DNA of 64,000 bases from Candidatus Vogelbacteria bacterium RIFOXYD1_FULL_51_18 (GTDB lineage Bacteria; Patescibacteriota; Minisyncoccia; Phycocordibacterales; UBA9988): assembly GCA_001823095.1 (NCBI GenBank), contig MHTL01000014.1, forward strand, positions 1,881 through 65,880. The letters are read 5' to 3'. Positions 7,423 to 47,785 of the stretch are shown here, one piece after another. The position numbers and the translations under genes were made by a program. Under the pieces are notes generated by a model, which was given only the letters and a program-made list of their open reading frames with translations, searched no databases and was not told where the DNA came from. Position 1 is the first letter of the stretch. Each line of letters opens with the position of its first letter.

Positions 7423-7458
7423 GCCGCTAGTATAGCAGAGCCCACCATTCCCGCCGAT

Positions 7459-7494
7459 GTAATAATCCTCTCACGATCGTGGAAGGATTATTAC
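7459..7494. repeat. 36-nt near-perfect palindrome gtaataatcct-ctCACGATCGTGga-aggattattac (TCACGATCGTGA-core hairpin family), between the wHTH/Cas2-like gene and dnaE
   Basis: The reverse complement equals itself except for 2 central positions. It lies about 35 nt upstream of the dnaE ATG and 14 nt downstream of the 7508-8086 gene. Confidence 0.8.
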
Positions 7495-7507
7495 AATCCC
7501 ATTTTGT

Positions 7508-8086
7508 TTATTTTAAAGGTAGGTCAAATGCTTTGCGTAGCCATCGGTCATTCTCAATAAAATCGGCAGTGAGATAGAGCACGTCTTTACCTATGTGGAT
7601 ATGCGCTTTCAAGAGCGTCACTACTTCTTGGCATTCGTACGGGTAGACCCATACACTCCGCTGGAGCTGGATAAAACCAAGTTGTGTAAGCCAGATGCGC
7701 AACGTATCTCTAGCGCCGCGCCTGGTTTCTTTGATGTCAAAGATAATGATTCTATATTTCTTATCCCACCGACGCGGTGTGGCGAGTGTTATATGTTTAA
7801 GCCGATACTGCATAAGGAGATCCCTGCCCTTTTCTGTAAGTCTCAATACCTTTCCAACTACCGGGTCTTGCTCCTGTTTGATTAACCCTTGCCGGATACA
7901 ACGCGTGACGACTACGTTTACATAGTGACACTTCTGCCGCCTGAAGAGAGGGGTGTATTTTAAGAGGCGCATTGCATTCGGCGCAACAGCGGCAAGGGCG
8001 AGGATCCCTGTGACGGCGATAAGACCAAGCACAATGGCGCTCACATCCCCTAGCACCCCCGATTTCTCTTTTTGTTTTTTCTCCAT
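7508..8086 (-). CDS. membrane-anchored winged-helix plus Cas2-like domain protein (PaaX/Cas2-fold-like), function unknown
   Basis: N-terminal TM helix (VSAIVLGLIAVTGILALAAV) and a wHTH-like segment (RCIRQGLIKQ...LRLTEKGRDLL). The C-terminal block YRIIIFDIKETRRGARDTLRIWLTQLGFIQLQRSVWVY resembles the Cas2 core (xxVVxYDIxxxxRRxKvxKxLxxyGxRvQxSVFeC). Confidence 0.55.
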   Translation of the reverse strand: MEKKQKEKSGVLGDVSAIVLGLIAVTGILALAAVAPNAMRLLKYTPLFRRQKCHYVNVVVTRCIRQGLIKQEQDPVVGKVLRLTEKGRDLLMQYRLKHITLATPRRWDKKYRIIIFDIKETRRGARDTLRIWLTQLGFIQLQRSVWVYPYECQEVVTLLKAHIHIGKDVLYLTADFIENDRWLRKAFDLPLK

Positions 8087-8087
8087 T

Positions 8088-8123
8088 GTAATAATCTTAC
8101 CACGATCGTAAGAAGATTATTAC
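8088..8123. repeat. 36-nt near-perfect palindrome gtaataatctt-acCACGATCGTaag-aagattattac, 1 nt upstream of the 7508-8086 gene start codon
   Basis: Same arms as the 7459-7494 copy (c/t difference) and the same CACGATCGT core; the two copies bracket one gene. Confidence 0.8.
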
Positions 8124-8205
8124 ACTGTACAAAATTATATAAGAGTGATATTCTATAGAAAACCCTAGCGTAGCTGGGATGATCTTTGTAAAACGAGGTG
8201 TTGAT

Positions 8206-27441: not shown

Positions 27442-27475
27442 GTACTAATTTATTCACGATCGTGAATAAATTAGT
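27442..27475. repeat. 34-nt perfect palindrome tactaatttatTCACGATCGTGAataaattagta (TCACGATCGTGA-core hairpin family)
   Basis: Exact self-complementarity; lies about 100 nt upstream of the start of the minus-strand gene at 27341. Confidence 0.8.
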
Positions 27476-27836
27476 ATGTTTGTGGGTGATAAAGAACCCC
27501 GTCTAATCTGCTAAAGCAGACGGACGGGGCGAGATGTTAGGTTACTCGAAGTGACTGGAGTCCGACTTCAGTCAATCAGAGCGGTACTTTTTGGCCGGTG
27601 GCCGATGAGCATCTTGCTCTTGGTAATATATGCGCTTGCAGAGGGCGCATGAGTTGATTTCGTTCATGAGCGCTCTCCGTTTGTCAAAATCCACTTCTCC
27701 TGCGGCAAGTTGCTTGATGACTTCTCTTTTTATACATCGATGCACCGTGCTCTGTGTGTTAGATATAGCCGGCACGCTGTCCACCTCCCTTCTTTTTTTA
27801 ATGTAGCACAGAGAAGCTCTGTGGTAAAATAAAAAC

Positions 27837-37986: not shown

Positions 37987-38661
37987 CTAACTCAAATCTT
38001 TCTTCCTTTCCTCAAATTCTTTTTTATCAATCTCACCTTTAGCATACCGTTTCTGCAAAATTTCAAGCGCGGATTTTTCGTGATTGTGCGTGCCGCGCGA
38101 TTGATTCGTAAGCCATTTGATAAGCGCGACAATACCCGCGATTATCAATACCCACCAGAGGATCATAAAAATCCAGCCGAACGAGCCAAAAGGCCCAGAT
38201 CCAAAATTCATCATACTCCCTCCCCACATCATATTCATCATCGGCATCCAGCCGCCGCTTATGGCCGGAAATGATGCTGATGTATCGCAACCAGAAAGAC
38301 GTTTACCCATGACGATGTGAATCTGCTCTTCGCCGTCTTCGCCATGCGCCTGAATCATCATGGCGTTCATGGCGGCATGGGACTCTCCAGCCATTTGTCC
38401 CATAAAATACTCGCCGAGAACTCCAAACTGCTCATCGCTTAAATTCTCGCAAGCGATTTCTTTTGCTTGCAGTGTATCCCAAAGCCCTTTGCCTTCCTGT
38501 TCTTCACGGGCGGTATGTTCAACGACCTCGTTCCAATCAACTGTCGTATTGGAGAGATTACCCATCCCTTCAACACCGTTCAGGACAGGCATTTGAGCAT
38601 CTACCGAACCGTCAACAAGTATTGACCCAAAAATGAAAGCCGTGATTAAAAGTTTTTTCAT
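37987..38661 (-). CDS. secreted/membrane Met-rich protein with C-terminal SHOCT domain
   Basis: Signal peptide MKKLLITAFIFGSILV, a Met-rich segment GGWMPMMNMMWGGSMMNFG, a TM helix, and a C-terminal LEILQKRYAKGEIDKKEFEERKKDL SHOCT-like motif. Confidence 0.6.
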   Translation of the reverse strand: MKKLLITAFIFGSILVDGSVDAQMPVLNGVEGMGNLSNTTVDWNEVVEHTAREEQEGKGLWDTLQAKEIACENLSDEQFGVLGEYFMGQMAGESHAAMNAMMIQAHGEDGEEQIHIVMGKRLSGCDTSASFPAISGGWMPMMNMMWGGSMMNFGSGPFGSFGWIFMILWWVLIIAGIVALIKWLTNQSRGTHNHEKSALEILQKRYAKGEIDKKEFEERKKDLS

Positions 38662-38683
38662 ACAGTCGTATTTTAGCTTATTC

Positions 38684-39067
38684 TTATTGTTTAGAAAAGA
38701 CGAAATACGAAAGATACCCAAGGAGTCCGAGTTGAATCGTAGGCGTTAAGCCGACGGAGAGAATTGGGATTATGGGCATATACTCATTATACGCCCATCT
38801 TCCCGTGTTGAGAGCGTACAATTCAATACATATCGAAATCAAGACGCCAATCGGAATAATGAGCCAGCTTCTTTTTCTGAGACTGGCGACCAGTACAAAG
38901 GGTAGAGTCAATAGGATAATAATAATCGCATCAGCGATAGAAGCTCGCAACAGAATAGTCTCGGTTATCTCTCCGCCCATATAAACGATATAAAAATAGG
39001 AATGTAAATTTTCCCAAATTAGATTAAGAAAAAATGACAAAATAAAAATTAAAGATACTTTTTTCAT
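38684..39067 (-). CDS. hypothetical multi-TM membrane protein (very AT-rich gene)
   Basis: Four predicted hydrophobic helices; composition is markedly AT-richer than the backbone. Confidence 0.5.
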   Translation of the reverse strand: MKKVSLIFILSFFLNLIWENLHSYFYIVYMGGEITETILLRASIADAIIIILLTLPFVLVASLRKRSWLIIPIGVLISICIELYALNTGRWAYNEYMPIIPILSVGLTPTIQLGLLGYLSYFVFSKQ

Positions 39068-39201
39068 ACTGTTTATTTTTCCGCATGAGCGGTATGCTCC
39101 TTAAAACGTTTCCTAAGATCGGTGGTTGATCCAAAATAAAGTTGCGAATCTTTTTTACTTTTCAAAATACATGTGTAGTTCATAGAATTTGGTGTGGGGG
39201 T

Positions 39202-40104
39202 TTATTTTTGTTCCCAGGGACTATTCAAAGACTCTTCTCCAATCTTCCACACGCCCTTTTCCAAGAAAGCCTCGATGGTCTGGCGGGTGGCCTTGTTGAT
39301 AAGATTTGAGTGAGAAAATTTGTTGCTCTTTGCATAGTCGGAAAGCAGAACAATCTTTTTGCTCTCTAAATATGCCAAACGCTTGTGATAACTATTGGTA
39401 AGAGCCTTACCAATAATCTCTTCCATAATTTCGGTTGCCCCCTTTTCATCAAACTCCCTGAAAGCGTCGTAGTATTTCTTCTGGTCGATAAACTTGATGT
39501 TTATCGGCACAAAGCCTTCCCGTATGAGGAGATAGTTGTTGATGACGCGCCCAATGCGGCCATTCCCGTCCATGAATGGGTGGAGATATTCAAACGCCAG
39601 ATGAAGCCGCGCGATGCGCTTGATGATATTTTCATGACTTGTCGCATTGTATTCCGCAAACATCTTCTCAAGACTCCCGTTGATTTCTTTTGGAGCAGGA
39701 GCAATATAACTGCCGACACGAACATACTCGTCATCCTTGCGAAATCGTCCGGCAACTTCATCACGAATATTTGACAGGAGCATCTTGTGGAGTGACAAGA
39801 TAACCTCAAAGCCGAGCTCCTGCTCTTTAGCCCGCTTGTTTATGTACGACACGACTCGGGCAAGATTTTTTGCTTCGAATATTTCTCGTTCAGAAATATA
39901 CCGGTCCAGATCAATCTGGAGAAGTATCTTTTCCGTTTCCTCAAGAGAGAGAGTACTGTTCTCGATAGCGTTTGAGTTGTATACCTGATCTGCGATTTCC
40001 GCTTCGCTTATAAGCTTAATAAGCGCATCTTTTCCGATGGCCGCTTTGTAATACCTTTCCCTAAACAGATTGATTTTATTAAGTGCTCTAGCTGTTTTCG
40101 CCAT
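39202..40104 (-). CDS. Fic/DOC-family protein (putative AMPylase)
   Basis: Canonical Fic motif HPFMDGNGRIGR. Confidence 0.9.
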   Translation of the reverse strand: MAKTARALNKINLFRERYYKAAIGKDALIKLISEAEIADQVYNSNAIENSTLSLEETEKILLQIDLDRYISEREIFEAKNLARVVSYINKRAKEQELGFEVILSLHKMLLSNIRDEVAGRFRKDDEYVRVGSYIAPAPKEINGSLEKMFAEYNATSHENIIKRIARLHLAFEYLHPFMDGNGRIGRVINNYLLIREGFVPINIKFIDQKKYYDAFREFDEKGATEIMEEIIGKALTNSYHKRLAYLESKKIVLLSDYAKSNKFSHSNLINKATRQTIEAFLEKGVWKIGEESLNSPWEQK

Positions 40105-40121
40105 ACGGATTAAGTATAGTC

Positions 40122-40157
40122 TTTTTCACGACTTTGTCAACTCTAATCGTGAAAAAC
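40122..40157. repeat. split variant of the TCACGA/TCGTGA hairpin: tttttcacga-[16 nt]-tcgtgaaaaa, 18 nt upstream of the Fic start
   Basis: 10-nt perfect inverted arms containing the TCACGA half-sites, separated by ctttgtcaactctaa; a further TTTCACGATTTTG half-site lies at about 40177. Confidence 0.5.
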
Positions 40158-40582
40158 TCTCTTTTTTCTTATACTTTCACGATTTTGGACATATAGCCCC
40201 TCTGCCTTTCAGCAGTATAACAAAAAGTGTCTCATATTGGCTCCGGAGTTAAAACCTTCACAAACCCCGAAGGAAAAACAAGTTCCCTACGAGGCATGCT
40301 TTTGAAATTATTCTGCCAAATCTGATACACAAATCCAAAAAGCAAAATCTGAAGTGATGCGCCCCGCCACTATTTTTCTGGGACAAAGGAGGCGGGGCTG
40401 GGCGACCTGTCCGCCGTAGCTTTAGCAAAGGCGGAGCGAACCCTCTCGTCTTCAAAATCCGAGTTCGTATCTAGTTTATTGGCTCCCACTACTGAACGAG
40501 TTTAGAACAATAGATTGGAAGGGTATAAAGCAAGAACTTGAGCTTAGCGGTATTATGACGCTACTGGGCCAGAGAGGTTTTG

Positions 40583-41026
40583 TTAGCGTCTAACCTTATC
40601 GGTTTCAAGATGGTTTTCTGTTATGGCCACAACATAGAAAGTTCGTTCTGGCTCAATATCAAAATAGAATATCCGTGCTCTTTGTTGTAGTTTTATTTCC
40701 TTGAGTTCAATGCCTTCAGCAATGCCCCTGTATAGCTTTTTGTATTCGCTATCGTATCTCATAGGTATTCGGTCCACATAGTTTCTTTGAAAATCGGCCT
40801 CGGGGCGGATTTTTGTTCCTATGGTTTTGAGAGTTTCTATGGCCCTTTTTGCTTTGTTGCCGCCGAGCTCTGAAATCTCGCACATTCTTTCGTTGTATTT
40901 TGCAAAAGAGATTACATAAGGAATTGCCTCAGGTGCTTCTGTGTCCTGAGGCAATTCTTGAGCGATTTGAGAAAGTTTGTCTATTTCATCACTTGGCTCT
41001 GTGGCTTGTTTTGGAATGTCGGTCAT
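40583..41026 (-). CDS. uncharacterised 147-aa protein, candidate toxin partner of the Panacea-domain antitoxin (weak RelE/HigB-like C-terminus)
   Basis: ATGA overlap with the upstream Panacea gene. C-terminal YRGIAEGIELKEIKLQQRARIFYFDIEPERTFYVVAITENH resembles the RelE/ParE/HigB (Gp49-like) beta-strand core; acidic N-terminal 50 aa. Confidence 0.5.
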   Translation of the reverse strand: MTDIPKQATEPSDEIDKLSQIAQELPQDTEAPEAIPYVISFAKYNERMCEISELGGNKAKRAIETLKTIGTKIRPEADFQRNYVDRIPMRYDSEYKKLYRGIAEGIELKEIKLQQRARIFYFDIEPERTFYVVAITENHLETDKVRR

Positions 41027-41526
41027 TTGTGCTTCTTGGCCTCTTCCAATTTTTCAGAGTAGTAATTTTTCATTGATTCAAGGGATATTTCGTTTTCTGA
41101 GTTTTCATAATGCTGAAGGCCCTTTCGTGCTTCTCGCCACGGCTCTTCTGAGTGCGTGAGCATTTCCAAATAACCAGCATCAAGTTTTCCGTATGCGTTC
41201 CATACGGTATCAATAAGTTCTTTTGACTTGCCCGAAATGTTAAGCGTGTCTGATTTTATCTCTTCCTGTATCGGTTCAAATCCGAACTTTTTATATAGCA
41301 CATACAAACTGCGAACTGCTGGCCCGTGCACCCACGCTTCAATCGGCTCACTGAAGAGTTTTTTGTTATTCAATACCAAAGACCAGGCCTGTGCGTAATA
41401 GACCAGTTTTTGGAGTTTTTTATTCGTTATCGGCTCTTTTTCTTGGCTGGCGAGATATAAGAAATATCGGCCTACATCCCGTGCCTTTAAGGTTTTTTGA
41501 GAGTGTAAGGCCATAGGTATTTTCAT
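41023..41526 (-). CDS. Panacea-domain (DUF4065, SocA/PanA-like) antitoxin
   Basis: NKKLQKLVYYAQAWSLVLNNKKLFSEPIEAWVHGPAVRSLYVLY matches the Panacea core, and the N-terminal DVGRYFLYL matches the family leader. Confidence 0.75.
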   Translation of the reverse strand: MKIPMALHSQKTLKARDVGRYFLYLASQEKEPITNKKLQKLVYYAQAWSLVLNNKKLFSEPIEAWVHGPAVRSLYVLYKKFGFEPIQEEIKSDTLNISGKSKELIDTVWNAYGKLDAGYLEMLTHSEEPWREARKGLQHYENSENEISLESMKNYYSEKLEEAKKHK

Positions 41527-41537
41527 AGTAGCAATTC

Positions 41538-41555
41538 TGTAAACAGTTGTAAACA
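41538..41555 (-). promoter_or_regulatory. direct-repeat operator-like element TGTTTACA-ac-TGTTTACA (minus-strand sense) upstream of the Panacea gene
   Basis: Two 8-mers at 10-bp spacing, 12 nt upstream of the proposed ATG, in an AT-rich 110-bp gap after abiEii. Confidence 0.4.
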
Positions 41556-41638
41556 GACAGGAAGATGTTGATATTTCTGGCCGAGCGTGTAAACTAAAGT
41601 AAAGTATGAAAGAAGTAATGATGGATAGACTCATAATT

Positions 41639-42931
41639 TTATTTTAACAAGTCATCAAAGTCGTGTCTGATTAGATCTTCTTTCCGAAGAACGATCTGTT
41701 CCTTCTGATTCAGGTTGTCAGCGGATACACGGATAAGTTTTGTCATCAGGGTGTCACCAACAAGTTCATAGTTAATTTTCTTCAAATAGGCCTCGATTTT
41801 TTCGTAAAATAGAGAGGCGTATTCTTTCTGCTTTTTCTCTGATGTCGGTCTACTGCTAGAACCATTTGCTGAAAACTCGATGCTGTCACTCACTACGTTG
41901 TTGATTGGAAACGAAACCTCGATGTCTTTGAAAAGAAACCAGTACTCGCTCAAGTTATATATAATGCGCACGTGGTCGCCCTCTTTCGTGCTGTACTCAA
42001 AAATGAAAGAGAACACATCAGTCCGGAAGTCCTCGAACACTCGCACTCTTTCGTATTTTGATACGGTTCTGATTTTATATTTATCGCGTAGCTGAAAGAA
42101 AGTGTCGCGCCAGTTCGCAAGCCAGTTAGTGACGAAACGAGGGTCAAGAAAGAGCGGTGAGAGGTCATTTTTGAGATTTTCTTCGCTTACGTTGTTCATT
42201 TTTACCGCAAGTTTTGTGAACAGTGTCCGATAATCTTTTGCTTCTTCCACATTCTTTGCTTTGAGATAGTCAAGGTCGGGTACGATTTTCTTACTCATGT
42301 ACCAAAGTAAATCGTAGATGTCGCGCCCTTTTTCTTCATACACCGCCTCGCCGACGCCACGCGTTCCGCGAAGGAAAATTGCAGCGATTTTGCTCGCCAT
42401 AAGAGAAGAGAGGTTGTATGTCCGGATTACGAATGACAACTGTCCATGATTCTGCGGTATTCTTTCCGTAACAACGCCGCCGGGCGGTGCAAACTGATTA
42501 CAATCAACTTTCACATGAATCCATTCGGAAGCGTAGCCCTCAATCAAACTGCCAGCTCGGAATTTAAGCGTTATGCCTCGATTGTTCGTGATAGAGATTT
42601 TCAAAAATTCCGCGTCAACTCCATAGACTTTTGCGAAATGCTTTTCTGCCTCTTCTTTGAATTCGTTGAGAAAGTCGCTGTCAACCTTGTGGCTTACCTC
42701 AAAATCCAAATCAACGGACATTCGGTCGAGGTCATAGCAGATGCGAAGCGCTGAGCCGCCATACATTATCCATTTGTTATATTCCGGATGATGATAAGTG
42801 AAATCGAGGACATAGAACTGCAACTCCTCTTTAAGAACGTTGAGGCGCGTCTCGGGATCGGAAATGCTAACGCCATAGGTCGAAAGGCCATCAAGTTTGC
42901 TTTTCAGGACTGTTAGTATCTGATCACTCAT
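41639..42931 (-). CDS. abiEii: AbiEii/AbiGii-family nucleotidyltransferase toxin (DUF1814)
   Basis: IMYGGSALRICYDLDRMSVDLDFEVS matches the AbiEii NTase motif (GGTAL...R.SEDLDF); 430 aa. Confidence 0.85.
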   Translation of the reverse strand: MSDQILTVLKSKLDGLSTYGVSISDPETRLNVLKEELQFYVLDFTYHHPEYNKWIMYGGSALRICYDLDRMSVDLDFEVSHKVDSDFLNEFKEEAEKHFAKVYGVDAEFLKISITNNRGITLKFRAGSLIEGYASEWIHVKVDCNQFAPPGGVVTERIPQNHGQLSFVIRTYNLSSLMASKIAAIFLRGTRGVGEAVYEEKGRDIYDLLWYMSKKIVPDLDYLKAKNVEEAKDYRTLFTKLAVKMNNVSEENLKNDLSPLFLDPRFVTNWLANWRDTFFQLRDKYKIRTVSKYERVRVFEDFRTDVFSFIFEYSTKEGDHVRIIYNLSEYWFLFKDIEVSFPINNVVSDSIEFSANGSSSRPTSEKKQKEYASLFYEKIEAYLKKINYELVGDTLMTKLIRVSADNLNQKEQIVLRKEDLIRHDFDDLLK

Positions 42932-43541
42932 GGAGATATGTTTTTACTTTTTCATAAAATTTCTTCCGCTCCTCCTCGTCCATCTCATCAATATCTATCC
43001 GCAATTCTTTTACCATCTTTGTAATATCTTCAAACCGGACGCTTCGAAACTGATGCGTTCTGAAGTACAGCAAGTCGAATAGTGCTTTTGATGGAGAAGC
43101 AATAAAAAAATCAAATTTTCCTTTCACAAGAGAGTAATCCGAAAAGAGATTCTTATTGATTGACTGGTATGAAAAAGTCCCCGCCTTCGTTTCATAATCC
43201 CGTGTGATTTTCGGTGTAACCGACGTGATAGAGCGTATCGCTTCAGTGGCGAGATTATAATACTGGAGCGCAGTCCACGAGCTTACGTAGGAAGGCGTAC
43301 GGAGAATGTTTGCAAGGTAGAAAGAATACGAGATATCGCTTTTATTATCTGCAAAAAAATCGGCGGTAATATACAAGCCATTTTTCAGCGGCAAAATCTC
43401 TTTGCGCTTCAAAAAACGGCTGATGTATGTATTTACCGTACTATTTTTCAGCCCCAACTGACTACCAAGCTGGTATACTGTACTTTTGGTGAAATGGGGC
43501 AAACTATTAAGCTGTTCCAACAGATTTTTCTTGCTTTTCAT
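42924..43541 (-). CDS. abiEi: AbiEi-family antitoxin/transcriptional regulator (wHTH N-domain)
   Basis: N-terminal wHTH (TVYQLGSQLGLKNSTVNTYISRFLKRKEILPLKNGLYI); 8-nt overlap with abiEii. Confidence 0.8.
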   Translation of the reverse strand: MKSKKNLLEQLNSLPHFTKSTVYQLGSQLGLKNSTVNTYISRFLKRKEILPLKNGLYITADFFADNKSDISYSFYLANILRTPSYVSSWTALQYYNLATEAIRSITSVTPKITRDYETKAGTFSYQSINKNLFSDYSLVKGKFDFFIASPSKALFDLLYFRTHQFRSVRFEDITKMVKELRIDIDEMDEEERKKFYEKVKTYLHE

Positions 43542-44061
43542 AACTATGACAATAGTGTATCATATATGAAATGAGCAGTCAAAAGCTCATATAGCCCGCC
43601 CCGCCTTTTTGCCACCCCATTCCAATTCAAATCCCCCCCGCGAAAAAAATAAGAATGGAGAAGGGGCAAAAGGCGAGGGCGGAACGCCGAGGCTCTGCGA
43701 GGCGTTGGGCGGAATGGTTAGAGTCACCACAGAGTCCGAGCGTACGATTCAATCAGAAGCCACCACGCACGCGGAGCGTGCGATTAGTCATCAGTCGGAT
43801 TATTGCGAAAATATGTTCGAACTTTTTCTAACAAACACAGCAAACTTAGATACCCTTCGGAATTTTTGGAACCGAGGGGCGCGCTTCGCGCGCTGTATGG
43901 AAAATCGGCGAGGAGGGCAAAGGATTTTTTCGGAGTGGCAAAAAGCGCGCTTCGCGCGCAGGTGGGGGTTCCATGATGAGTACATCATTCAAAACAAAGT
44001 TTTGCGAGCCGACGGGCGGCAATTTCAAAGCGATTGAGAGCATAGCTTTCCCTTTTTCTAT

Positions 44062-45435
44062 ATGAATAAATTCTTTCTCTACGCGCGAAAATCTACCGAC
44101 GAGCCGGACAGGCAGATTTTGTCTATCGAAGCGCAGATACACGAGTTGAAAGAATTTGCAGAGCGAGAGCATTTGGAGATCGTGGACACTTTTATCGAGT
44201 CGCAAACGGCGAAGGAGCCGGGGCGACCTATTTTTAATCAAATGCTCTCGCTTATTGAAAAAGGGAAAGCCAATGGAGTTGTGGCGTGGCACCCAGATCG
44301 TCTCGCGCGCAACAGCGTTGATGGTGGGCGTATTATCTACCTTATTGACATCGCTAAGGTGGTTGCGCTCAAATTTCCGACTTTTTGGTTTGAACCCACG
44401 CCACAAGGCAAATTTATGCTCTCAATCGCTTTCGGGCAGAGCAAATACTATGTTGATAATCTTTCAGAGAATGTGAAGCGCGGTTTGCGACAGAAAGTGC
44501 GCCGTGGCGAGCAAAGCGGACAAGCGCCGACCGGATATTTGAATGATAAAGCGAATCGTGTGATCGTACCCGATCCGGCGCGCTTTAAGTTTGTCCGCGA
44601 ATTGTTCGAAGCATACGCCACGGGTTCACATTCTCTGAAAGAAACTGGGAATTTGCTCTCTGCCCGAGGCTTGGTTAGTCGGAACGGCAATGTGCTTACC
44701 ATTTCGAATATTCAAATGATTTTGCGTAATCCGTTTTACTACGGGGCGTTTAAGTTCAATGGCGAGGAGTATCAAGGTAAGCACAAGCCAGCGATAACAA
44801 AGAAACTTTTTGATCAGTGCCAAGCGGTGATGGCGCGAAAAGCGCACCCCACTAAGCGAGGCGAGCAAAAGCATATTCTTCGCGGAGTTTTTTCGTGCGC
44901 AGAGTGCGGTTGCGGTATCACAAGCGAAGTGCAGAAAGGTCATGTGTATTATCGGTGCACGAAAAAGAAAGGTATCTGCGCACAACCCTATGTCCGCGAA
45001 GAGTTGCTCGCCTCGCAAATCACCGAGTATCTGCAAAAAGTTTCTTTGTCTTCGGCGTGGGCAAATGAGATGCTTGCTCTCTTGGAGAAGGAGCAAGCAG
45101 AAACTACCCACGCCGATGCCGATTTCGTTCAAAATCTAAAGCTCAAAATTAAGGAGTGCGAGGAGAAGCTTGACCGGCTTCTTGACGCGCATCTTGAGCA
45201 AACGCTATCGAGCGAAGAATATGTCGCCAAGAAGCGCGTTCTCCTCGACTCTAAAATTGATTTTGAGCAGAAGTTGAAGGATTTTGAGCGAAACGGCAAT
45301 CATTGGCTCGAACCGGCCCGACAATTCGTTTTAGCGGCTCAACAAGCCAAAATTATCGCTTTGCAAGAAAATCCCGTCGCGGGACGGGATTTTCTCAAAA
45401 GAATTGGCTCGAACCACGTCGACAATTCGTTTTAG
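44062..45435 (+). CDS. large serine recombinase (resolvase catalytic domain + recombinase domain + zinc ribbon); C-terminus apparently frameshifted by a 101-bp tandem duplication
   Basis: Catalytic YARKSTDEPDRQILSIEAQ (Ser nucleophile) and a zinc ribbon CAECGCG...YYRC. The alternate frame 45303-45644 re-encodes the same peptide and continues to the tRNA. Confidence 0.9.
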   Translation: MNKFFLYARKSTDEPDRQILSIEAQIHELKEFAEREHLEIVDTFIESQTAKEPGRPIFNQMLSLIEKGKANGVVAWHPDRLARNSVDGGRIIYLIDIAKVVALKFPTFWFEPTPQGKFMLSIAFGQSKYYVDNLSENVKRGLRQKVRRGEQSGQAPTGYLNDKANRVIVPDPARFKFVRELFEAYATGSHSLKETGNLLSARGLVSRNGNVLTISNIQMILRNPFYYGAFKFNGEEYQGKHKPAITKKLFDQCQAVMARKAHPTKRGEQKHILRGVFSCAECGCGITSEVQKGHVYYRCTKKKGICAQPYVREELLASQITEYLQKVSLSSAWANEMLALLEKEQAETTHADADFVQNLKLKIKECEEKLDRLLDAHLEQTLSSEEYVAKKRVLLDSKIDFEQKLKDFERNGNHWLEPARQFVLAAQQAKIIALQENPVAGRDFLKRIGSNHVDNSF

Positions 45436-45520
45436 CGGCTCAACAAGCCAAAATTATCGCTTTGCAAGAAAATCCCGTCGCGGGACGGGATTTTCTCAAA
45501 AGAATTGGCTCGAACCACGT
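45302..45520. repeat. 101-bp tandem direct repeat, 2 full copies plus a 17-nt third copy, each starting ATTGGCTCGAACC
   Basis: Units at 45302-45402 and 45403-45503 are identical apart from a 6-nt patch (ggcccg vs acgtcg); partial unit at 45504-45520. Confidence 0.9.
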
Positions 45521-45629
45521 TTTGCGCTCGCAAGCGATTTGCTTTGAACCTAAAAAGTCGTGGAAAATTCTTGCCGATTTGCCCGCCGAGGGGCGAAGCC
45601 CCGAGGCGGAGAACTCGTATCATCCTATT

Positions 45630-45705
45630 TGGCTCCGCGGCTAGGGCTCGAACCTAGGACATCCTCGTTAACAGCGAGGCGCTCTACCAACTGAGCTACC
45701 GCGGA
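45630..45705 (-). tRNA. tRNA-Asn (anticodon GTT), CCA encoded
   Basis: Reverse complement reads TCCGCGG-TA-GCTC-AGTTGGT-AGAGC-G-CCTCG-CTGTTAA-CGAGG-ATGTC-CTAGG-TTCGAGC-CCTAG-CCGCGGA-G-CCA, a clean cloverleaf. Confidence 0.85.
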
Positions 45706-45756
45706 ATATATTTTTCCGCGGTAGCTCAGTACTGAGCCCTGCCTGTCGGCAGGCAG
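45690..45756. repeat. inverted copy of the first 16 nt of tRNA-Asn (TCCGCGGTAGCTCAGT) 9 nt beyond the tRNA 5' end, followed by a ctgcctg/caggcag hairpin
   Basis: 45690-45705 (tRNA 5' end, minus) and 45715-45730 (plus) are exact reverse complements. Confidence 0.7.
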
Positions 45757-47682: not shown

Positions 47683-47736
47683 CATATTTGACAGAGAAGA
47701 GCTCTGGGACTCACTTAATTTTTTGTACAGAACAAA

Positions 47737-47778
47737 AATCATCACATCCTATCACGATCGTGATAGGATGTGATGATT
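47737..47778. repeat. 42-nt perfect palindrome aatcatcacatcctaTCACGATCGTGAtaggatgtgatgatt (TCACGATCGTGA-core hairpin family), 8 nt upstream of the pyrD-like ORF start
   Basis: Exact self-complement. Confidence 0.85.
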
Positions 47779-47785
47779 TGTAACA

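Follow-up and report, generated by a model that had tools for sequence, protein, structure and literature searches.

A solitary class II fic gene (39202..40104, minus strand; 300 amino acids) is preceded by three short sites in fixed register with its promoter, and we consider these sites, with a probability of roughly 0.7, to be an operator for negative autoregulation by the Fic protein itself. This reading comes from sequence comparison and structure prediction, applied to the window (the whole 64,000-nucleotide stretch of DNA analyzed here) and to related loci. It would account for a puzzling repeat as the DNA that controls an accessory gene ranking among the most conserved in CPR/Patescibacteria.

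Two perfect 10-nt inverted arms, TTTTTCACGA at 40122-40131 and TCGTGAAAAA at 40147-40156 (plus strand), were present upstream of fic as described in a first-pass annotation of this DNA; the gap between them measured 15 nt, not the 16 nt given there. The further half-site reported beyond the arms was located at 40175-40184 (TTTCACGATT, plus strand), 27 bp upstream, and the middle and third half-sites form a second 10-nt inverted repeat (AATCGTGAAA, 20 nt, TTTCACGATT). Its placement also held: the nearest arm begins at 40122, 18 nt from the fic ATG (open reading frame, 39202..40104, minus strand), and the element lies inside an AT-rich island (~38.0-45.7 kb; GC content, 0.40-0.45, versus ~0.55 for the rest of the window). 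This low-GC island, fic included, is horizontally acquired.

On the fic (minus) strand, the distal site, D (40174..40188), reads CCAAAATCGTGAAAG; its core GTGAA (40180..40176) was invariant in 31 aligned promoters, and its center falls at about -72, given a putative transcription start near 40106. An A-tract spacer (40157..40173, minus strand; TATAAGAAAAAAGAGAG), kept across loci in length and not in sequence, separates D from site U (40141..40156, minus strand; TTTTTCACGATTAGAG; core TTCAC). Site U lies directly upstream of the -35 box, carries a TTCACG that was invariant in the alignment, is inverted relative to the other two sites, and corresponds to the 3' arm of the inverted repeat annotated first. 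Site S (40122..40136, minus strand; CAAAGTCGTGAAAAA; invariant core GTGAA, 40129..40125) corresponds to the 5' arm, lies in the -35/-10 spacer, and is centered near -21 from the same putative start. The full order on the fic strand is CCAAAATCGTGAAAG (D), TATAAGAAAAAAGAGAG, TTTTTCACGATTAGAG (U), TTGACA, AAG, TCGTGAAAAA (S), GAC, TATACT, TAATCCGT, and ATG. The conserved core of the sites is TTTTCACG/CGTGAAAA (TTTCACG/GTGAA), not TCACGA, and the alternating orientations of D, U, and S do not fit simply onto a single symmetric dimer.

What had been taken as a plain gap between half-sites contains the fic -35 box, TTGACA (40135..40140, minus strand), of which T-GACA was invariant in 31 orthologous promoters; the supposed hairpin arms therefore bracket the -35 hexamer. 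The -10 hexamer, TATACT (40113..40118, minus strand), is separated from the -35 box by 16 nt and from the ATG by 8 nt. Together, TTGACA-16-TATACT matched 11 of 12 sigma-70 consensus positions and was the top promoter-like match in 12.5 kb. Sites U and S thus flank the -35 hexamer on either side, with S filling the 16-nt -35/-10 spacer, a classic operator position. No Shine-Dalgarno sequence was found before the fic ATG, which, together with the closeness of the -10 box to the start codon, suggests that the fic mRNA is probably leaderless or has a leader of 1 to 2 nt. Such a near-consensus sigma-70 promoter makes testing in Escherichia coli possible, although most CPR bacteria are uncultured.

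A scan of species-representative genomes for Fic orthologs yielded 44 loci, and the same three-site layout and spacing was found upstream of the gene in 41 of the 44 genomes. In 31 aligned promoters, the blocks GTGAA, TTCACG, T-GACA, GTGAA, TA---T, and ATG were invariant, the sequence between blocks was variable with constant length, and the flanks were unconserved. A strict full-layout pattern (D, U, -35, S, -10, ATG) was matched by 94 of 123 related Fic loci, from CPR and non-CPR bacteria, for which 130 nt or more of upstream DNA was available. The center-to-center distance was 27 to 28 bp between D and U and 23 to 24 bp between U and S in all 94 layout loci; the -35/-10 spacer was 16 to 17 nt in 79, the -10-to-start distance was 6 to 9 nt in 63, and a tract of at least four A or T residues lay between D and U in 69. 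The strict layout failed in 3 of the 44 genome loci and in about one-quarter of all loci, some of which had variants or extra sites. The recurrence of the same three sites at the same spacing in 94 of 123 loci bears out the first-pass view that the half-sites are constrained as sequence. Its proposal of a dimeric protein with flexible spacing survived in part: a multimeric binder, and not the GATC center, explains the half-sites best, but the spacing is fixed (27 to 28 and 23 to 24 bp in 94/94).

A fourth half-site was present between the -10 box and the start codon in 17 of the 94 layout loci; it pairs inversely with S around the -10 box, and the leader is longer (upstream of fic in L066, L089, L101, L114, L115, L125, and L128). 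In two large-genome relatives (L045, 1350-1500; L050, 1350-1500), the whole operator unit D-U-(-35)-S was tandemly duplicated upstream of fic.

When the window from 36 to 47 kb was compared with the 44 genomes (blastn), homology was confined to the stretch between the fic stop codon (39201) and 40155-40188, extending to 40240 in two loci. With homology restricted to the open reading frame and its upstream DNA, the conserved unit is the fic open reading frame plus ~85 nt carrying the three sites and the promoter. Among open reading frames within 3 kb on either side, no conserved neighbor gene was found (the largest non-Fic family occurred in 4 of 45 loci), nor was an adjacent cotranscribed antitoxin gene, the mark of type II systems, found in the 45 loci. 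The fic module occurred in distant phyla and varied gene contexts. In L045 and L046 it adjoins type I restriction-modification genes, with hsdR upstream in both, and in L045 an N6_Mtase/Methylase_S gene lies downstream of it.

The Fic protein carries the inhibitory motif SNAIEN (residues 44 to 49), which fits the class II pattern (S/T)xxxE(G/N) located N-terminal to the core, and the catalytic motif HPFMDGNGRIGR (residues 175 to 186), which agrees with HPFx[D/E]GN[G/K]R. Residues N43 to S50 were invariant in 64 homologs, and the inhibitory segment had low pLDDT in the model. Relatives numbered more than 8,000 in databases, the best being 80 to 94% identical and coming from many CPR/Patescibacteria lineages, and the closest solved relative was FICD. 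Close relatives were absent from plasmid and phage collections, where the best matches were Fic cores of at most 37% identity, none spanning the whole C-terminal domain.

For the C-terminal domain, AlphaFold2 run on 38 sequences of at least 81% identity gave an unusable model (pLDDT, 56), and the model used here was built from 64 more diverse sequences (pLDDT, 76 overall and 86 to 94 for residues 220 to 290). Its elements are a long helix (225 to 246), a strand (250 to 253), two helices (254 to 261 and 265 to 273), and two strands (279 to 282 and 285 to 290). This strand-helix-helix-strand-strand order is the predicted topology of a winged helix-turn-helix of the excisionase/MerR type, spanning residues ~250 to 290 (39235..39357, minus strand). 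Within it, S264-Q275 (39280-39315) is predicted to form the recognition helix, with H265 and S266 as its specificity positions. Sequence matches to the domain were weak: HTH_17 was the commonest Pfam match, below threshold (6 of 31 diverse C-terminal segments; best E value, 0.014), and excisionase PHROG families were among the other weak matches. Searches of Pfam, NCBIfam, and PDB sequences with the C-terminal 62 to 73 residues and with 10 distant full-length relatives gave no significant domain. Fold searches with the whole Fic model returned Fic-core matches only, and HMMER with the C-terminal 72 residues returned 163 clusters, essentially this Fic family and fragments of it, with no free-standing relatives bearing an annotated domain.

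The link between protein and sites was drawn from relatives of ~50% identity, taken from metagenomes and large genomes, which keep the D-U-(-35)-S-(-10)-ATG layout. Two half-site types occur among them: 32 loci carry GTGAA/TTCAC and 37 carry GTTAA/TTAAC, and within this subfamily all three sites of a locus switch type together. Across ~300 alignment columns, residues 265 and 266 (window numbering), in the first turn of the predicted recognition helix, were the best predictors of site type (mutual information, 0.81 and 0.59 bits; maximum in 200 label shuffles, 0.53). The combination [IVFM][NHQ] at 265/266 was found in 29 of 34 nonidentical proteins with GTTAA sites versus 0 of 30 with GTGAA sites (Fisher P = 2e-13, ignoring kinship); the 5 remaining GTTAA loci are exceptions. 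On a neighbor-joining tree built from residues 1 to 235 only, site type switched at least nine times, so the association is not the signature of one clade. This covariation is what direct readout by Fic's own helix-turn-helix predicts, and the GTGAA/GTTAA and 265/266 variation offers a readily testable specificity code. A possible third operator type, GGTTAAT/ATTAACC, accompanies a recognition helix that begins with V-L-S-G (L101 and L115), which suggests more than two specificity classes.

We propose that the predicted excisionase/MerR-like winged helix-turn-helix at the Fic C terminus reads D, U, and S, with one such domain per 15-bp unit (CAWAA-N-CGTGAAAAA) and with Fic probably acting as a dimer or higher oligomer, like the class II proteins FICD, CbFic2, and CccR. 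Occupation of U and S would occlude the -35 box and the spacer and so exclude RNA polymerase, and the expected outcome is repression. Site D and the A-tract may add cooperativity through DNA bending. Autorepression and the intramolecular inhibitory helix would together hold down the level of a potentially toxic AMPylase that has no antitoxin partner. A more extended version is speculative, and we hold it with considerable doubt: fic, its leaderless promoter, and its operator would be a self-contained single-gene toxin/defense module of ~1 kb, not described before and spread over CPR and other phyla, in which the shared middle site serves a two-state switch (occupation of D and U permissive, that of U and S repressive), operator DNA gates the AMPylase/deAMPylase balance, loss or titration of binding (as in phage infection or DNA damage) both derepresses the gene and activates the enzyme, and the GTGAA/GTTAA variation paired with residues 265 and 266 forms a recognition code for this helix-turn-helix class.

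The nearest known system is CccR, whose structure is presumably PDB 7xux. CccR of Yersinia pseudotuberculosis is a class II Fic toxin and transcription factor with a C-terminal helix-turn-helix, and it represses its own promoter; its footprint there, AGATAATCAT-N26-ATGATAATCT, is an inverted repeat with well-separated halves close to the -35 and -10 boxes (PMC9755527). The Fic protein described here is likewise class II, and its repeat operator also overlaps its own -35/-10 region. The two proteins differ in size (380 versus 300 amino acids) and share 16 to 18% identity over the Fic core only; their DNA-binding domains have no detectable similarity, that of Fic looking HTH_17/excisionase-like, with no detectable sequence similarity to solved structures. 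CccR has a two-site operator, whereas here there are three sites (27 + 24 bp apart), an inverted pair that brackets the -35 box only, and a probably leaderless mRNA. The best reading of the comparison is that the Fic operator would work like that of CccR, with membership of the same family not implied. If so, CccR, the single characterized self-repressing Fic toxin, would be joined by a large family with another DNA-binding domain and three sites. Fic proteins of the CbFic2 and SoFic type (PDB 8cil and 3eqx/3zcn) have a C-terminal winged helix-turn-helix that is of the DeoR/winged-helix type and follows a long helix in a protein of ~370 amino acids, and no operator or autoregulation is described for CbFic2. 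In type II toxin-antitoxin systems such as phd-doc, Doc is a Fic-fold toxin and a separate antitoxin binds the operator. Type II operators resemble the present one in that inverted repeats overlap the toxin promoter, in negative autoregulation (proposed here), and in their location in mobile or defense islands; they differ in having an antitoxin partner, whereas here no partner gene is present and the toxin carries a predicted DNA-binding domain and an inhibitory helix. A literature search on Fic in CPR/Patescibacteria turned up no publication about the present family or about its operator.

DNA binding might instead serve mainly to control the enzyme, with the sites dimerizing Fic and shifting it between AMPylase and deAMPylase, a mode of action proposed for CbFic2, and with any effect on transcription being secondary. 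Precedents exist in CbFic2 of Coxiella burnetii, which targets histone H3 and whose activity is altered by DNA-induced dimerization through its helix-turn-helix, and in FICD, the closest structural relative, which is regulated by a monomer/dimer switch (PMC10628234). However, the CbFic2 helix-turn-helix was reported to bind DNA largely nonspecifically (PMC10628234), whereas the sites here are sequence specific, and their placement around the -35 box and in the -35/-10 spacer at fixed distances in 94 loci is what selection on transcription predicts. We regard enzyme control as an unlikely primary role; it is compatible with autorepression, and control of the CbFic2 kind could be either a rival or an added function, the two not being mutually exclusive.

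A second alternative is that a separate regulator encoded elsewhere in the genome, either a transcription factor of the host or an antitoxin-like protein from an unlinked gene, binds the sites. The DNA-binding fold of the Fic tail is a prediction whose family matches are subthreshold, and most toxin genes are controlled by a partner antitoxin, as is established for type II toxin-antitoxin systems. Against this, the motif counts do not point to a host regulon. The heptamer TTTCACG occurred six times in the 64 kb (three at the fic promoter and three singletons; median for permuted 7-mers, 5); outside Fic promoters, 295 kb contained 28 copies, none of them clustered, against an expected ~29. The bare half-site TTCACGA was not enriched in the window (9 observed versus 7.7 expected), so the generic half-site of the first-pass annotation did not stand up to the enrichment check proposed with it. 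Taken by themselves, the window statistics are modest for the paired arrangements too: TTCACG-N0-30-CGTGAA was observed twice in the window versus 0.18 expected, the second match being a palindrome at 27453, and the everted pair was observed once versus 0.11 expected. As the half-site is unenriched elsewhere (~360 kb), there is no sign of a host regulon, and that reading was rejected, TTTCACG being neither enriched nor clustered outside Fic promoters. The lack of any neighbor gene conserved in the 45 loci, the presence of the module in distant phyla and varied contexts, and above all the covariation of site type with Fic residues 265/266 also argue against a separate regulator, which we judge quite improbable.

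The sites could also be recombination or mobility sites bounding a mobile fic cassette of ~1 kb. Site D and the stop codon mark the limits of homology between loci, and the module turns up in very different contexts. A 299-amino-acid protein, P0315, joins a serine-resolvase N terminus (19 to 156) to the C-terminal part of this Fic family, comprising the Fic motif region and the helix-turn-helix tail; it could be a true recombination product or an assembly chimera. Yet no repeat or site was found at the 3' boundary and no recombinase is conserved beside the module, the sites keep a fixed register with the -35 and -10 boxes, and their covariation with the Fic helix-turn-helix favors binding by Fic. 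This alternative appears very unlikely.

The first-pass annotation had viewed the inverted arms as a split variant of a TCACGA/TCGTGA hairpin. In the orthologous promoters, the bases that complete the two hexamers (A in TCACGA, T in TCGTGA) vary freely, and U and S were complementary at this innermost pair in 11 of 31, a level equaled by 358 of 500 shuffles. Over the 10-bp "stem," 83.9% of cells were paired versus 84.3% in shuffles, the covariation score was below the shuffle mean, and RNAalifold reported zero compensatory pairs. The region folded as single-stranded DNA with a z-score of -3.1. A terminator scan reported no intrinsic terminator at the sites, whose arms are AT-rich with a 15-nt loop, and no T-run follows them on the fic strand. 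Scans of the window with Rfam (gathering thresholds) and for tRNAs detected only tRNA-Asn (45630-45705) and nothing at the fic locus. A hairpin or RNA structure was rejected on the basis of RNAalifold and the explicit pair counts, which gave no covariation.

The TCACGA and TCGTGA hexamers also occur in host palindromes centered on CACGATCGTG, four of which (7458-7495, 8087-8124, 27443-27476, and 47736-47779) are contiguous, 34 to 44 nt long, perfect or near perfect, and intergenic, with differing outer arms and the common center (C)CACGATCG(TG). Two near-identical copies (TGTAATAATCYT...ARGATTATTACA) flank a gene for a PaaX-like regulator (7508-8086). The palindromes may be terminators whose apex is conserved, sites for protein binding, or cruciforms. 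Their flanks (ATTCACGA, TATCACGA, and TCTCACGA) differ from those of the fic sites, and CACGATCGTG itself has three copies in the window and none in 300 kb drawn from the 44 genomes carrying the Fic promoter; the motif is specific to this genome. In contrast to these contiguous, genome-specific palindromes, the fic sites have 8-nt conserved cores at fixed spacings of 23 to 28 bp; they arrived with the horizontally acquired gene and are kept in genomes without the palindromes. The shared hexamer is coincidental, and the fic locus is thereby separated from the host's GATC-centered palindromes, a distinct feature. Nothing links the PaaX-like protein, put forward earlier as a candidate regulator, to the sites, and the covariation points to Fic. 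That the fic sites are a split or composite version of the TCACGATCGTGA hairpins, working either as a stem-loop of DNA or RNA or through the same factor (e.g., the PaaX-like protein), is thus scarcely credible. In its favor are the common hexamers, the perfect 10-nt arms, and the single-stranded fold; against it, covariation is lacking, CACGATCGTG is missing from 300 kb of other genomes with the Fic sites, the predicted transcription start comes after the sites, no T-run follows them, and fic sits in an acquired low-GC island.

The island itself (38000-45700) is built like a defense island and includes, besides fic, a gene for a SHOCT membrane protein and one for a serine recombinase. A GC-rich self-complementary patch (40360-40450; gcgccccgcc...ggcggggctgggcgacctgtccgccg...) lies within the AT-rich island upstream of the Fic operator and had no Rfam match at gathering thresholds. 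Further along are a Panacea-domain antitoxin (41023-41634) with a 147-amino-acid partner (40583-41026), an AbiEii nucleotidyltransferase toxin (41639-42931) with a probable AbiEi-like partner (42924-43541), and the large serine recombinase (44062-45435). A 101-nt tandem duplication (45302-45503; 96% identity) covers the 3' end of the recombinase gene and the DNA just beyond, copying C-terminal coding sequence together with a GACGGGAT hairpin (45366-45395 and 45467-45496). The right edge of the island is marked by tRNA-Asn (minus strand), whose first 17 nt have a perfect inverted copy 7 nt away (ACTGAGCTACCGCGGAA/TTCCGCGGTAGCTCAGT; window positions 45690-45730); this copy may be an attachment-site scar.
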